Shown: in pieces, positions 17,589-38,175 of the stretch
Numbering within the stretch: position 1 is the stretch's first letter
Layout: each line of letters begins with the position of its first letter
Assembly (NCBI GenBank): GCA_964647565.1
Contig: CAZYIM010000023.1
Location: 1-43,127, forward strand
DNA length: 43,127 bases
Reading direction: 5' to 3'
Source: an uncultured Methanosarcinales archaeon
GTDB taxonomy: Archaea; Nanobdellota; Nanobdellia; Woesearchaeales; CAZYIM01
The notes under the pieces: generated by a model
What the model was told of the DNA's origin: nothing
The model's input: the letters and a program-made list of their open reading frames with translations, nothing else
Databases searched by the model: none
Program-made: the position numbers and the translations under genes

Positions 17589-18152
17589 CTAGACGACAAA
17601 TTCGGTTTCGTCAGAGTCTTTACTTTCATATAGTATAGTCTTCTTTCCAGGATAGAGACCCATGCTCGACATCTGGTTAAACTGGGCGGGATCCAAGGTC
17701 AGATATATGATCTTATAGTCGTAGCGATCCTTGATGTTAGCCACTGTTGACCTGATGAAATCCCTGTTCAATCCCGTACCTATTATAAGTAGATTAGCCT
17801 TGTTTTTTTCCTCTTTTCCATGTAGAACCACCATCTGCAGGCCGTCAAGATCTCTGATCTTGTCTATGAAATCATTTAAGATGGATCTCTTGTCTTCCAG
17901 GAACTGCTGCAAAACATCGATATTAGGGCCCTTTTTGAGGCTGTAGAGCTTAAATTTCTTGATTTTGTGCTCTTCTATAAGCTCAAGAGAACGCAGCTTA
18001 GAGACGATCCTAAAGACTGTGGCTACAGGCACCCTGGTCTTCCTCGATAATTCACGTAGATAAAACTCTTCCTCTGGATTGTTCAGGAACACCCTGAGTA
18101 TGTTGAGGATCTTCTTATCGAACAACTCCTCAAGCAGTTTACCTGTCTCCAT
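17589..18152 (-). CDS. Winged-helix DNA-binding protein fused to a degenerate nucleotidyltransferase-like domain
   Basis: ILRVFLNNPEEEFYLRELSRKTRVPVATVFRIVSKL is a wHTH. C-terminal VVLHG...ANLLIIG resembles an MNT fold lacking GS and DxD. Confidence 0.75.
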   Translation of the reverse strand: METGKLLEELFDKKILNILRVFLNNPEEEFYLRELSRKTRVPVATVFRIVSKLRSLELIEEHKIKKFKLYSLKKGPNIDVLQQFLEDKRSILNDFIDKIRDLDGLQMVVLHGKEEKNKANLLIIGTGLNRDFIRSTVANIKDRYDYKIIYLTLDPAQFNQMSSMGLYPGKKTILYESKDSDETEFVV

Positions 18153-18279: not shown

Positions 18280-18657
18280 TTATATTTTCCTTGCCTGAGT
18301 TTCGTAATAGAAAATATCTTTCAGGGGTTTGAGTAAACCCTTCATCAGGCCTTTTTTTCTAATATCGTGTGCTGCTTTTGGTTCGGGATGATGTCTTTGT
18401 TCATTATAGACAAGATACTCGATACCCTCATTTTGGGTAACGCCTGCAACATAAACTGTGAATTCTGGCCCCCTTCGATCCAATGCTTGCTTAGCTTCTT
18501 CATCTTCAAATTCAGCAAAGGTTGCAATCTCTTTGACTGGGAAGTGCATTCCTTGAATTACCTCGTTATAATCGAGTTTTTCGAGCATAAGATCTTTGAT
18601 GGTTAATCCTGGCACCTCATCGTGATCGTTGATATAAACCACAATATTTTGAGTCAT
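18280..18657 (-). CDS. Hypothetical protein
   Basis: 125-aa ATG ORF with natural composition, TATA-like TTTAAAT about 25 nt upstream. Confidence 0.65.
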   Translation of the reverse strand: MTQNIVVYINDHDEVPGLTIKDLMLEKLDYNEVIQGMHFPVKEIATFAEFEDEEAKQALDRRGPEFTVYVAGVTQNEGIEYLVYNEQRHHPEPKAAHDIRKKGLMKGLLKPLKDIFYYETQARKI

Positions 18658-18708
18658 TTTATAGTGGTAACTGTTCAGAATTTAAATATTTTTCGAGAAT
18701 CAGAAATG

Positions 18709-18796
18709 AATCAATCACAACTGCGGGGGTAAAGGGTGTTAGTTGGCTGAGGGGTGGTATGTTAAAGAAAACATACGCCCCGCAGTTGTATTGATT
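18709..18796. ncRNA. Structured RNA-like element, copy 1
   Basis: Closing stem AATCAAT-C-ACAACTGCGGGG / CCCCGCAGTTGT-ATTGATT around a 36-nt core, with inner hairpin GTATGTT/AACATAC. Confidence 0.6.
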
Positions 18797-18814
18797 GAAC
18801 GTGATGTGGGTAAG

Positions 18815-18898
18815 AACCAATCGGTTGCAGGGGTAAAGGGTGTTAGTTGGCTGAGGGGTGGTATGGATAAAGAATTACCGCCTGCAACTTGATTGGTT
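18815..18898. ncRNA. Structured RNA-like element, copy 2
   Basis: Closing stem AACCAATC-G-GTTGCAGG / CCTGCAAC-TT-GATTGGTT around the identical 36-nt core (18830-18865 = 18726-18761). Confidence 0.6.
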
Positions 18899-18902
18899 AT
18901 GA

Positions 18903-19019
18903 TTATGCTTCATCATATGCTTCGTGCATATAATGGGTGTATTCGGCCAGTTCAACCTGGTCTTTTGCATCTTTTTTGATGTTAGTTTTTTCGACAAGTT
19001 TGGATAGTTCATCTGTCAT
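18903..19019 (-). CDS. Small 38-aa protein not in the ORF track (MTDELSKLVEKTNIKKDAKDQVELAEYTHYMHEAYDEA)
   Basis: ATG at 19019, AGGTGGT RBS 5 nt upstream, TTTATATAG TATA-like box at about 19054-19062, TAA at 18905-18903. Confidence 0.7.
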   Translation of the reverse strand: MTDELSKLVEKTNIKKDAKDQVELAEYTHYMHEAYDEA

Positions 19020-19128
19020 TTTTTACCACCTACAAGTAATAATGTATAAACTACTATATAAATGTTTCGTTTTTTTACCCCTTTTTAGTGGTAAAAATCA
19101 GAATATTAATAAAGTTAAGGAGTTTCTT

Positions 19129-19854
19129 ATGACTATGAAACTCACATATAAGACTGTAAAAAATATCGGCAGAGTCATGTGTGCAAGTGTCCAGCTTTAT
19201 GTTACAGGTAAAGAGCATGTTAAACCTGGCTCTGGTCTGGTGATCGCTAATCATCCTCATGGCCTGGAAGAGATCTTAATGATAGGAGCCCAATTCCAAG
19301 AGCGTCTTGCTTATATGGCCAACCAGCAGTTTTTTGATAAGCTCTGGGTTGGATCCCGAGTAGAGACCTATTTTTCAGAACATCTGGGTGTCAAGTCTGG
19401 AATCCTAGTGGACAAGATTGTCAAAGCCGCTGCAGATCTCGTCAATGATTCCATATCTGAGATGGATGTAGTGCCTGTTAAGATGAGCGGCGCTAAAAGA
19501 GAAGGAGATATAGGCATAAGTAATTTTAAAAAAGCAATACGCTATGTTGGAGGAGGCCAGAAGCTGGTAATCTTCCCAGAAGGAAGAAAAACCCTGAGTG
19601 AGAAGCTAAAACCTTTTAATCCGGGCCTTGGAGCTCTGGCCTATTCGCTTCATATTCGAGGCCATGATGTTCCTGTCTATCCAGTTAGAGTGGTAGGCTT
19701 TTCAAAGCTTACGAAACTAAGAATCCTGACCAGACCTTTGCTGAAGATCCATTTTGGTGAGCCGCTTTACATAAAGGATTATATGAATGAGACCAGAAAA
19801 GAGACTATAAATCTTTTTGTAGATGTCCTGTACGATACTATGAGAAGCATGTAA
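19129..19854 (+). CDS. PlsC-like lysophospholipid/1-acyl-glycerol-3-phosphate acyltransferase family protein
   Basis: LVIANHPHGLEE (HxxxxD-type motif with E), IFPEG, VPVYPV. AAGGAG RBS favours ATG 19129; the longer GTG start would overlap the 38-aa ORF and its promoter. Confidence 0.85.
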   Translation: MTMKLTYKTVKNIGRVMCASVQLYVTGKEHVKPGSGLVIANHPHGLEEILMIGAQFQERLAYMANQQFFDKLWVGSRVETYFSEHLGVKSGILVDKIVKAAADLVNDSISEMDVVPVKMSGAKREGDIGISNFKKAIRYVGGGQKLVIFPEGRKTLSEKLKPFNPGLGALAYSLHIRGHDVPVYPVRVVGFSKLTKLRILTRPLLKIHFGEPLYIKDYMNETRKETINLFVDVLYDTMRSM

Positions 19855-35383: not shown

Positions 35384-38020
35384 TTATTTATTTCTCAACG
35401 CTGCTTGTGCTGCTGCCAGTCTAGCTATCGGCACCCTGAAAGGGCTGCAGCTGACATAGTCCAATCCAGTCCGATGGCAGAAATCAATGCTTGCAGGTTC
35501 GCCACCGTGTTCTCCGCAGATTCCAATCTTCAGTTTTGGATTGGTGCTCTTACCTTTTTCTACTGCAATCCTGACAAGCTCTCCGACGCCTTCCTGGTCT
35601 AGAACTTGGAATGGATCCCTTTCATAGATGCCTTTGGCAACATACTCTTTTAAGAACGTGCCTGCGTCATCTCTCGAAAATCCACATCCCATCTGGGTTA
35701 AGTCGTTAGTCCCAAATGAAAAGAACTCTGCTTCCTTCGCAACCTTGTCTGCAGTTAGTGCACCTCTGGGCACTTCGATCATGGTGCCGACAAGATATTT
35801 AATTTCTATATTTTGCTCTTTGAGAACTTTCTCAACTGTGTCTACAACAACCTCTTTTTGGTTCTTCAACTCCTGGACATGACCTACCAATGGAATCATT
35901 ATCTCTGGCCTCACATCTATTTCTTCTTTTTTGACTTTGCATGCTGCTTCCATAATTGCCCTTGCTTGCATCTCTGAGATTTCAGGATAGGTTATACCTA
36001 ACCTGCACCCTCTATGACCCAGCATCGGATTAAATTCGTGCAGCTCTTTAACTTTTGTTTTCAGTTCTTCAAATGTGATACCAATCCCTTTAGCAATTTC
36101 CCTGATCTCATCATCTTCGTGAGGTAGGAACTCGTGTAGGGGCGGGTCAAGTAGTCTTACTGTAACTGGTTTGCCTGTCATGACCTTGAACAGTTCAGCA
36201 AAATCATTTGTCTGGAACGGCAATATCTTGGCCAGGGCTTTTTTTCTGCCTTCAACATCCTTGGCGACAATCATTTCCCTCATAGCTGTGATTCGGTCTC
36301 CTTCAAAGAACATGTGTTCTGTCCTGCATAGACCGATTCCTTCTGCACCAAACTCAATGGCTTTCTTTGAATCTCTTGGGGTCTCTGCATTGGTCCTTAC
36401 ACCCAGGGTTCTTACTTCATCAGCCCATTCCATTAAAGTAGCAAAATTACCTGACAATTTAGGATCAACAACAGCTATTTGTCCTTCAATAACATCTCCT
36501 GTAGAACCGTCCAGTGTCAAGAAATCGCCTTCTTTGACAATAAGATCCTGGCATTTGAACTGTTTCTTATCTTCTTCAACTGTGATGTCCGAGCAGCCTG
36601 CAACACAAGCCTTACCCATTCCTCTGGCAACCACTGCTGCATGCGATGTCATACCGCCTCTCGCTGTTAAGATGCCTTGAGCAGCATCCATGCCCTCTAT
36701 ATCTTCAGGGCTGGTTTCTGTCCGGACTAAAATAACCTTCTTTCCTGCTTGTGCTTGCTTAGCAGCTTCTTCAGCATTGAAAACCACCGTTCCAACAGCA
36801 GCGCCTGGTGATGCGGGTAAACCTTTGGCTATGAACTTACCTTTTCCCTTTGCTTCTTCCTTTGCAACATCGTCAAGCTGCTTATGCAATAGTTGGTCAA
36901 GTTGTTCTGGTTTGACTCGCATAAGTGCTGTTTTTTTATCAATCAATCCTTCATCAACCATCTCAACTGCTATCCTGACTGCAGCCATGGCAGTCCTTTT
37001 TCCAGCCCGGGTCTGTAGCATGAATAACTTCCTGTTTTCAATGGTGAATTCAAAATCCTGCATGTCTTTGTAGTGCTTTTCAAGAATATCGTATATCTTG
37101 ACTAACTCTTCATATGCTTTGGGCATCACTTGGTTCAAAGTATCGATTGGTTGTGGTGTCCTTATGCCTGCAACGACATCCTCTCCTTGAGCATTGATCA
37201 GGTATTCACCATAATGCTCTTTTTCTCCTGTTGAGGGATTTCTTGTAAATCCGACGCCTGTTCCACAGTCATCACCGAAATTTCCAAAGACCATGACCTG
37301 GACATTGACACCTGTACCTGCATCATTTCTTAGATGATTGATTCTCCTGTAAGCTACTGCCCTGTCTGTGTTCCATGACTCAAAAACCGCATTGATAGAT
37401 AGTTCAAGCTGTTTTTCTGGATCTTGTGGGAACTCTTTCCCTGTAGTTTCCTTTATTATTCCCTTGTAGGTTTCAACCAGTTTCTTTAGGTCATCTGCAT
37501 CAAGGTCTGTGTCAAACTCAACACCTTTGGTGTCCTTTAGGTTCTGGATTGCAGCCTCGAACTTGGAATGCTCTACTTCAAGAACCACATCTCCGAACAT
37601 CTGTAGGAAACGTCTGTATGAGTCCCAGGCCCCTCTTTCGCAGTCGCTTTTTGCAACCAGACCTGTCACGACAGTATCATTCAAACCGAGATTGAGCACT
37701 GTGTCCATCATGCCAGGCATAGAGACATAGGATCCGCTTCTTACTGAGAAAAGCAGAGGATTTTCTGGATCACCGAATTTCTTACCCATCTTCTCCTCGA
37801 TTGCCTTGAGTTTCTCCTTGACCTGGTCCATCAATCCTTCAGGCCATTTCTTATCATTTTCATAATACTCATTGCAGCCTTCAGTAGTGATGGTAAAACC
37901 TGGTGGTACAGGCAAACCAATGCTTGTCATTTCAGCTAATTGAGCACCTTTGTTGCCAAGAAGAATAATTGTATCTTTGGTTGCTTTAGTCTCATCAAAT
38001 AGATATACATATTTTTTCAT
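35384..38020 (-). CDS. ppdK: Pyruvate, phosphate dikinase
   Basis: LGNKGAQL, SVRSG..SMPGMMDT, GGMTSHAAVVARG (phospho-His), GIGLCRTEHMF, SFGTNDLTQ, GICGEHGG. Confidence 0.99.
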   Translation of the reverse strand: MKKYVYLFDETKATKDTIILLGNKGAQLAEMTSIGLPVPPGFTITTEGCNEYYENDKKWPEGLMDQVKEKLKAIEEKMGKKFGDPENPLLFSVRSGSYVSMPGMMDTVLNLGLNDTVVTGLVAKSDCERGAWDSYRRFLQMFGDVVLEVEHSKFEAAIQNLKDTKGVEFDTDLDADDLKKLVETYKGIIKETTGKEFPQDPEKQLELSINAVFESWNTDRAVAYRRINHLRNDAGTGVNVQVMVFGNFGDDCGTGVGFTRNPSTGEKEHYGEYLINAQGEDVVAGIRTPQPIDTLNQVMPKAYEELVKIYDILEKHYKDMQDFEFTIENRKLFMLQTRAGKRTAMAAVRIAVEMVDEGLIDKKTALMRVKPEQLDQLLHKQLDDVAKEEAKGKGKFIAKGLPASPGAAVGTVVFNAEEAAKQAQAGKKVILVRTETSPEDIEGMDAAQGILTARGGMTSHAAVVARGMGKACVAGCSDITVEEDKKQFKCQDLIVKEGDFLTLDGSTGDVIEGQIAVVDPKLSGNFATLMEWADEVRTLGVRTNAETPRDSKKAIEFGAEGIGLCRTEHMFFEGDRITAMREMIVAKDVEGRKKALAKILPFQTNDFAELFKVMTGKPVTVRLLDPPLHEFLPHEDDEIREIAKGIGITFEELKTKVKELHEFNPMLGHRGCRLGITYPEISEMQARAIMEAACKVKKEEIDVRPEIMIPLVGHVQELKNQKEVVVDTVEKVLKEQNIEIKYLVGTMIEVPRGALTADKVAKEAEFFSFGTNDLTQMGCGFSRDDAGTFLKEYVAKGIYERDPFQVLDQEGVGELVRIAVEKGKSTNPKLKIGICGEHGGEPASIDFCHRTGLDYVSCSPFRVPIARLAAAQAALRNK

Positions 38021-38175
38021 TTTAACACCCTTTATGTTTTATTTTCAAAATTAGAATTCCTTGGAACCCTACCTCTCTTAGAGGGAGATTTTGCAGGTGT
38101 TTTTATGTTTTATGATGCTGTAAAATGCAATACTGATAAAAATATTTATAAATACATATATCCGATAATACAGTT

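Follow-up and report, generated by a model that had tools for sequence, protein, structure and literature searches.

We analysed a 43,127-nucleotide (nt) stretch of DNA, referred to below as the window, that spans positions 1 to 43,127 of contig CAZYIM010000023.1 of an uncultured Methanosarcinales archaeon assigned by the Genome Taxonomy Database to the Woesearchaeales. Between positions 18,709 and 18,898 the window contains two hairpin modules arranged in tandem, which are the subject of this work. Read on the minus strand, the predicted unit consists of a consensus promoter, made up of a transcription factor B recognition element and a TATA box (BRE/TATA), a 38-amino-acid (aa) open reading frame (ORF38), hairpin 2, which begins 4 nt past the ORF38 stop codon, and hairpin 1, which follows 18 nt further on. 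Archaea of the DPANN group, to which this order belongs, are uncultured or hard to culture, and to our knowledge no regulatory RNAs have been described for them. Here we provide evidence that the hairpins are, with little room for doubt, a conserved structured element. Our best joint explanation, which we hold tentatively and would place just short of an even chance, is that they are tandem modules of an unlisted small structured RNA family of this order with a C-rich seed.

Two hairpins share an identical core

The original prediction, made from the letters of the window, had described an identical 36-nt core that recurs with a period of 104 nt inside stems whose sequences differ between copies while pairing is kept. 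Both features were confirmed. The cores are letter-identical, the identity between the copies stretches to 40 nt with one mismatch, and when the window was shuffled 100 times by dinucleotides, two core matches never arose. The whole genome (2.68 Mb in 86 contigs) holds these two copies and no third, and none of the core's 11-mers recurs in it to a notable extent. Since the period of 104 is not divisible by three, the identical cores fall in different frames and cannot represent one shared reading frame; a coding origin was rejected, and the short ORFs that cross the element gave no family match.

Read by hand, the closing stem comprises 19 base pairs (bp) and one bulge in copy 1 and 17 bp and one bulge in copy 2. 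All of the arms quoted in the prediction are present, as inverted repeats that match the stems over 12/12, 8/8 and 8/8 nt and as the pair AATCAAT/ATTGATT. Comparison of the two stems showed at least four pairs altered on both sides (T-A to C-G, G-C to A-T, C-G to T-A and A-T to G-C) and one further pair changed to G.T, with no pair broken. When the 88-nt elements were folded and compared with shuffled sequences, z-scores of -4.8 and -5.2 were obtained for the plus strand and of -7.4 and -7.8 for the minus strand, and on neither strand did any of 200 shuffles fold equally well. The preferred inner folds differ between the two copies. The heptamer TAAAGAA, which had also been noted at the outset, occurs in both copies and corresponds to the UUCU motif that relatives carry on the other strand.

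Low-depth contigs from four DNA runs are identical to the window and carry no variants. One contig from a DNA run (run X1) joins position 18725 to 18830 and skips one 104-nt period, which would be explained either by a population variant with a single copy or by collapse of the 40-nt repeat during assembly.

Compensatory changes maintain the closing stem in relatives

A BLAST search with a 206-nt region against 40 genomes of the same order yielded no DNA-level homolog (best non-self E-value 0.03), and an exact 20-mer from the core was found in no stretch of a metagenome contig collection. Covariance models were built in three rounds, R1 to R3. R1, derived from the two window copies with the closing stem as its sole structure, was searched in 151 genomes and gave mostly noise, together with matches in two genomes (G066 and G071; genomes, loci and families bear G, L and f numbers) that lie in intergenic DNA and combine a perfect stem of different sequence with a similar loop. 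The R1 matches in L026, L027, L028, L029, L031, L032, L033 and L042 were judged spurious because of a coding-like context and the absence of a promoter. R2, built from four sequences, matched four of 20 genomes of family f67, three of four of f72, and G004 and G016. R3, built from 11 sequences and not covering the promoter, matched 28 of the 151 genomes of the order at E ≤ 0.05; when these matches were read in context, 19 of the 151 sampled genomes, from 17 families, were judged to carry both hairpin and promoter. 'Spurious' calls are our own judgement, and the covariance E-values are rough.

Thirty-one copies from 27 genomes were aligned to R3 to give alignment A4, which includes L057 from the unpublished genome G120. 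Left out were the R3 matches in G009 (first match), G108, G039, G082 and G090, judged spurious from their coding-like context, as well as the match in G145 and the second matches in G066 and G009, which were excluded uninspected. In A4, 92.3% of the cells of the closing stem are paired, compared with 51.2% after shuffling and 40–55% when one strand is slid along the other. All 15 stem pairs vary on both sides, and 166 such cells were counted against 45.7 expected, a number matched by none of 500 shuffles. A smaller alignment, A3, gave 95.9% paired cells. Each A4 sequence forms the stem when folded alone, and the stems of different families have no sequence in common. A long Watson–Crick closing stem is maintained by compensatory change. 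Covariance models grown stepwise from the two copies and scanned over relatives, much as had been proposed, did recover homologs with strong covariation, and the objection that such homologs might not exist does not hold.

The inner pairings of the relatives are short, AU-rich and out of register between families. Since they are not conserved, our structural claim is limited to the closing stem. The suggestion that the 3' C-run could alternatively pair with the internal GGGGTG on the plus strand and so form a switch finds no backing here, as the inner pairings differ between the two copies and are not kept in relatives.

With regard to distribution, matches in a class-wide sample of 151 genomes were restricted to the same order, except for one marginal match (E 0.008). 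An exact-motif scan of 185,579 species genomes returned 49 loci, ten of them archaeal and assigned by title to Candidatus Woesearchaeota (five), Nanoarchaeota (three) and uncultured Methanosarcinales metagenome-assembled genomes (two); all ten scored 21.7–69.2 bits with R3. When 35 of the bacterial loci, which contain the motif by construction, were given to R3, 11 scored 12.4–26.4 bits and 24 gave no match at E ≤ 1; four further loci, from Alistipes, stood outside this scoring. Carriers have one to three copies per genome. Tandem pairs are also found in G002 and G016, and within each of these genomes the two copies are mutually most alike, which points to repeated duplication or homogenisation. 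The source genome (G000), at 2.68 Mb, exceeds every same-order genome listed (0.6–2.3 Mb) and is the sole member of its family among them.

The loop carries a conserved C-rich block

On the C-rich strand, which is the minus strand of the window, the loop is free of G and consists of UUCU, an A-rich spacer of 3–9 nt and then ACCACCCCUCAC(AC). The sequence CCACCCCUCA is present in exact form in 14 of the 31 copies. The looser pattern CAC(2-4)UCA is present in 19, and in 18 copies UUCU lies at most 14 nt upstream of it. Family f67 has its own version of the block, CCCACCCAUCACCCC, and in L060, as in some other relatives, the block reads AUCACCUC, as does the tail of 16S rRNA. In the minimum-free-energy fold the block is wholly unpaired in 23 of 31 copies, with a mean probability of being unpaired of 0.65–1.00.

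Promoter and U-tract signals favour the C-rich strand

Signals in the flanks were used to assign the strand. A TATA box (TTTAWAWA) occurs within 350 nt upstream of 28 of the 31 copies on the C-rich strand and of eight on the G-rich strand. On the C-rich strand CGAAA or GTAAC usually stands before it, as in the consensus promoter of this genome, and by our own count the box was found in 17 of the 20 copies that had not been used in building R3. When the 20 nt that follow the last hairpin were inspected in 28 units, 22 showed a run of at least four U on the C-rich strand and six on the G-rich strand; for runs of at least five U the numbers are 15 and two. In family f72, the region upstream on the G-rich strand showed no conserved TATA box. 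In five loci (G096, G102, G034, G121 and G002), no more than about 6 nt separate the predicted start from the 5' edge of the model. From the promoter and U-tract signals we infer that the minus strand of the window is probably the RNA. These signals favour the minus-strand view contained in the original prediction, that the elements follow the 38-aa ORF and expose stretches resembling the sequence complementary to Shine–Dalgarno (SD) sites. The features of the locus are listed in Table 1.

Table 1. Positions of features in the window and of one distant candidate site
Feature	Position	Strand	Remarks
Consensus BRE/TATA CGAAACATTTATATA	19055..19069	-	directed at ORF38 and the hairpins; predicted start near 19032
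SD sequence GGUGGU	19025..19030	-	5 nt before the AUG of ORF38
ORF38 (38 aa)	18903..19019	-	between promoter and hairpins
Hairpin module 2	18815..18898	-	first in the predicted transcript; 17-bp stem with one bulge (18815-22/18891-98 and 18823-31/18881-89); R3 score 77.4 bits
UUCU motif, module 2	18868..18874	-	site of TAAAGAA on the other strand
Conserved block, module 2	18852..18862	-	mean probability unpaired 0.98
Identical core, copy 2	18830..18865
Hairpin module 1	18709..18796	-	second and last in the predicted transcript; 19-bp stem with one bulge (18709-15/18790-96 and 18717-28/18778-89); R3 score 82.7 bits
Inner hairpin of module 1	18757-63/18770-76
UUCUUUA with the family-wide UUCU, module 1	18763..18769	-	5' of the C-rich block; reverse complement of TAAAGAA
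Identical core, copy 1	18726..18761		loop of module 1 when read on the minus strand
Conserved block, module 1, ACCACCCCUCA	18748..18758	-	anti-SD-like; predicted mostly unpaired, mean probability 0.79
Second C-rich stretch, module 1, CUAACACCCUUUACCCC	18726..18742	-	in this genome only, not conserved in relatives; twin at 18830-18846
Near-palindromic TATA TTTAAATA	18681..18688		most likely promoter of the leaderless 125-aa ORF (minus strand); a plus-strand RNA from it would begin at about 18711
125-aa orphan ORF	18280..18657	-	downstream, outside the conserved unit
12-nt perfect complement to the genome-specific loop stretch	38023..38034	-	target lead only

The genome contains just 23 instances of the strict promoter consensus, and in leaderless genes the AUG lies 36–40 nt from the first base of this consensus, the C of CGAAA. 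Across loci, 17–203 nt separate the end of the TATA box from the start of the model, and in most relatives the distance is 17–90 nt without an intervening ORF. No plausible ORF is present between promoter and hairpin in 18 of 25 loci; such loci would give rise to a stand-alone small RNA (sRNA) with an estimated length of about 90–170 nt, often with another leader hairpin. In the other seven a small ORF with its own SD sequence intervenes, and three ORF families are represented: besides the 38-aa ORF of the window, there are ORFs of 30–31 aa in three f67 genomes, a 43–44-aa family in G128 and G120, and a 42-aa ORF in G071. ORF38 may be related to the 30–31-aa ORFs that occupy the same position in f67, the likeness being a weak one (29–37% identity, low complexity).

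Neither the 125-aa nor the 38-aa ORF matched Pfam, NCBIfam or PADLOC. The 125-aa ORF was detected in one of 401 same-order genomes, namely the source genome itself, and is useless as a synteny anchor. No conserved downstream gene of the kind that a leader or riboswitch would suggest was found beside the element with a crude ORF finder.

Three observations concern the promoter itself. In the loci of G004, G137, G091, G120, G102, G013, G128, G121, G142, G016 and f72, about 35 nt of the promoter ahead of the element are conserved, and GTATAC stands there about 14–20 nt upstream of AGTAACATTTATATACTAG, as if a binding site for some factor had been added to the core promoter. At 19049-19097, contigs of other organisms from four marine runs match the window at about 85% over 36–43 nt, the match being the BRE/TATA consensus. 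The 16S rRNA promoter of the same genome (contig C15, near 4967) is identical to the window promoter over CGAAACATTTATATA.

Comparison with known RNA families

The original prediction had recognised no known RNA family at this locus, and a search of Rfam 15 agrees with it: in the region 18400-19200 no match overlapped 18709-18898 at E ≤ 10, and the whole window gave none at the gathering score. Among ten homologous loci, a distant tRNA was the sole Rfam match at E ≤ 0.1. ARAGORN found no tRNA in the window nor near the element in the ten loci, and no T-loop motif was seen by reading. Archaeal box C/D and H/ACA guides resemble the element in being small RNAs closed by a terminal stem. GAUGA and CUGA boxes stand at the expected places only in L046, on the G-rich strand, and are missing from the window copies and most of A4; the loop is one-sided (0–1 nt opposite), with no two-sided pocket and no conserved ACA box. 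A CRISPR array is not indicated either, as the genome has two copies only, the flanks of each pair together, and no cas ORF was recognised in the 15.5–22.5 kb interval.

Small RNAs of other lineages offer closer parallels. The RsaE/RoxS RNAs of Firmicutes (Rfam RF01820) are short, have their own promoter and terminator, and carry unpaired C-rich motifs, often several, that are complementary to G-rich ribosome-binding sites. The window family shares this short C-rich-seed design but is archaeal, presents its seed in a large one-sided loop on a stem of 9–19 bp, and gave no Rfam match to RsaE/RoxS in the region or in the ten loci. In Methanosarcina mazei, sRNA41 has been proposed to mask SD sites with an anti-SD-like stretch. 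It belongs to a different lineage and has no detectable homology to the window family, whose function is predicted from sequence. The family shows two features of trans-acting sRNAs with a C-rich anti-SD-like seed: an unpaired C-rich block and, going by sequence signals, its own promoter and terminator on the seed strand. In the abstract openings returned by a full-text literature search, no sRNAs of DPANN archaea or Woesearchaeota were found.

Two more distant likenesses may be mentioned. ToxI-type antitoxins also consist of tandem repeats upstream of an ORF, here a 36-nt identical unit; ToxI units measure about 34–47 nt and are joined head-to-tail before an endoribonuclease toxin gene, whereas the window has hairpins with a period of 104 nt, no toxin family downstream and a downstream gene that is not conserved. 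Y RNAs and bacterial Y-like RNAs likewise have their two termini joined in a long stem, a large loop rich in pyrimidines and a U-tract at the 3' end; the window family showed neither a bulged helix for Ro binding nor a tRNA-like domain, and no search for a Ro (TROVE) protein was made.

A side result of the tRNA search concerns the genome as a whole. In contigs C1–C64 of this genome, which is 87% complete, ARAGORN called only 20 tRNA genes when introns were allowed, 19 of them with an intron, and nine when they were not; the anticodon loops of several of the latter are odd. Many of the genome's tRNA genes may have been missed or be of unusual form.

A possible role in pairing with Shine–Dalgarno sequences

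In the mechanism that we propose, the BRE/TATA at 19055-19069 would drive a minus-strand transcript through ORF38, hairpin 2 and hairpin 1. The unpaired C-rich block would serve as a seed for pairing with G-rich SD-like sequences such as GAGGGGUG(G/A)U, which serve as ribosome-binding sites in this genome. Such pairing would restrain translation initiation or alter the fate of the mRNA, and the presence of two modules on one transcript would double the number of seeds. Base pairing directed at SD sequences is a possible function of the family, although we hold it with more doubt than conviction.

The loop block is the complement of a G-rich SD variant, and the 3' end of 16S rRNA reads GGAUCACCUCCU. 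Hexamers of this type are 9- to 16-fold over-represented before ORF starts (GAGGTG, 104 observed versus 6.3 expected; GGGGTG, 38 versus 3.5; GGTGGT, 54 versus 6.0), and 14 of 33 GAGGGGTG sites lie ahead of a start codon. Among 2720 start regions, taken like all ORF sets for these statistics from crude stop-to-stop calls, duplexes of -14 kcal/mol or better were predicted at 58 for the consensus seed and at 56 for the 16S tail, versus 16 and 14 for windows inside genes.

A more far-reaching version, in which an abundant order-specific sRNA copies the anti-SD tail, competes with the 30S subunit for SD-led mRNAs and shifts the balance between SD-led and leaderless translation, would be consistent with these sequence features and is in our view unlikely. 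The dose of such an RNA would be raised by tandem duplication of the hairpin or by its attachment to mRNAs for small proteins.

One candidate site was found for the genome-specific stretch of the loop. Its 12-nt perfect complement lies in the SD region of a pyruvate phosphate dikinase gene (35384-38020) and stops 2 nt short of the AUG. By our estimate chance would give about 0.6 complements to the loop 12-mer in the genome; three were found, one of which is the dikinase site. Complementarity to 16S rRNA itself was also considered and rejected: the loop resembles the end of helix 44, but it varies while the 16S site does not. A separate observation is that a 674-aa ORF in the source genome (contig C10, 37858), which by eye looks like an MCM-type helicase from its N-terminus, has the SD sequence AGAGGGGUGGU, a 10-nt perfect complement of the conserved block.

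Weighing the small RNA family against other explanations

Several observations weigh against a small RNA family with a C-rich seed. Alignments A3 and A4 were fitted to the model structure, which favours the pairing counts, and the element was detected in only about one-eighth of the sampled genomes. The stem gives no indication of the strand: of its 402 cells, 12 are wobble pairs when read on one strand and 13 when read on the opposite one. The promoter is absent in three of 31 copies, and in f67 a terminator-like hairpin between the small ORF and the element could end the transcript early. In the window itself, the last hairpin is followed by only a U-rich stretch whose longest U-run is 3; since there is no clear U-tract after hairpin 1, the window RNA may run on towards the 125-aa ORF, which has its own TATA box placed for a leaderless start. 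As for function, a shuffled C-rich control likewise favours start regions (41 versus 14 inside genes), and the strongest duplex sites genome-wide are not enriched at starts (12 of 100 and 65 of 500, versus 288 of 3000 for the G-rich background). Pairing with the SD sequence of the upstream small ORF was tried and rejected, as it ranked an ordinary 459–1058 of 2720.

The alternatives differ in what the loop would do. The hairpin could act in cis as a 3'-end module, that is, as a specialised terminator, stabiliser or processing site whose loop binds a termination or 3'-end factor and which has no target in trans. The element does invariably close a short unit and precede a U-tract, it follows unrelated small ORFs in seven of 25 loci, and its stem is nearly pure Watson–Crick; we nevertheless consider this role unlikely, because in 18 of 25 loci there is nothing but the hairpin itself to terminate, one to three copies per genome do not make a general terminator, and the occurrence of tandem copies with identical loops speaks for the loop as the payload. 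Alternatively, the loop of UUCU ... ACCACCCCUCAC on a long stem with a U-tail could be bound by a protein, as in Y RNAs, so that the RNA titrates or carries a partner such as a factor recognising the 16S 3' tail, or a KH or Sm-type protein. The overall shape (stem, G-free loop and U-tail) suits this, no convincing RNA target was found, and UUCU is conserved whether it lies in the loop or in the stem (L046 and L057 compared with the others), which would suit a sequence-specific protein contact. The neighbourhood links no candidate protein, since the genes upstream and downstream vary by locus, and we regard a decoy or carrier of this kind as quite unlikely. The original prediction had named a novel sRNA, a protein-binding RNA repeat and an RNA antitoxin together. 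Of these the sRNA fits best and the antitoxin is not supported. As a type III-like antitoxin for the downstream 125-aa ORF the element would be a tandem repeat with a 36-nt identical core ahead of an uncharacterised same-strand ORF, but that ORF has no match in Pfam, NCBIfam or PADLOC, no homolog in 400 other same-order genomes and a promoter of its own, other family members precede unrelated genes or none, and a hairpin repeat of 104 nt is not a head-to-tail unit of 34–47 nt; it is the least tenable of the rivals and scarcely deserves credence.

Two further alternatives question the strand or the RNA itself. If the plus, G-rich strand were the RNA, it would be an SD mimic or a riboswitch-like molecule with alternative pairings that starts from the TATA at 18681-88. 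That TATA is perfect and ends 18 nt before the start of the model, plus-strand folds are slightly more stable on average (-24.0 versus -21.0 kcal/mol), and in f67 a hairpin and a U-run follow on the G-rich strand. We rate this highly unlikely, given a TATA at eight of 31 copies, U-runs of at least four in six of 28 units, an f72 upstream region without a conserved TATA, inner pairings that are not conserved, and the fact that the window TATA is correctly placed for the leaderless 125-aa ORF. The remaining possibility is a palindrome that acts as double-stranded DNA or as a cruciform and has a protein-binding core, for instance an operator, a replication or recombination site, or a bidirectional terminator. 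Its stem is nearly free of wobble pairs on both strands, the 104-bp period is close to ten helical turns, and a winged-helix gene (17589-18152) lies nearby. The loop, by contrast, is strongly strand-asymmetric and G-free on one strand, the polarity of promoter and U-tract is consistent, the neighbouring genes are not conserved, and the loci read contained no origin, integrase or transposase context, so that a DNA-level role appears very remote.

A small RNA family with a C-rich seed is therefore the explanation retained here. It would be a compact family supported by covariation, with clear signals for promoter and terminator and a loop of fixed, accessible sequence, present in at least 17 families of one order. 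As such it offers a concrete object for metatranscriptomics and for in vitro work on translation control in reduced cells, and its covariance model would annotate intergenic regions that are now blank.

Other features of the element's neighbourhood

Further motifs resembling the anti-SD sequence lie on the same predicted transcripts. In f67 (L025, L043, L044 and L045) a conserved short hairpin between the small ORF and the element has CACCUCC, the anti-SD core, in its loop or stem on the C-rich strand, and it is flanked by U-runs on both sides. The leaders of G137 and G004 hold AUCACCUCC or AUCACCUACC. Downstream, at least eight relatives (L056, L057, L059, L047, L068 and L030/L048/L049) have a conserved GGAGAAAAAGAGGUG stretch 20–130 nt past the element on the C-rich strand. 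One or two strong hairpins come after it; the region contains no ORF, has no match in Rfam and may represent a second unlisted RNA. In f72, three genomes show conservation over about 170 nt of this downstream region.

An aromatic patch closes the small acidic ORFs, reading EEYY(N/S) in f67 (L025/L043/L045) and QVELAEYT in the window; it is loosely like a PCNA-binding (PIP-like) motif. In f67 genomes G066, G235 and G407 a large upstream ORF on the opposite strand ends just before the element; the one in G066 has a P-loop motif and was taken by eye for the large subunit of a clamp loader (RFC). Within the window, the winged-helix gene encodes a protein of 187 aa on the minus strand, whose N-terminal winged helix-turn-helix matches the PADLOC candidate-defence model PDC-M05A (E 3.5e-9) as well as models of Csa3/CARF-type regulators.

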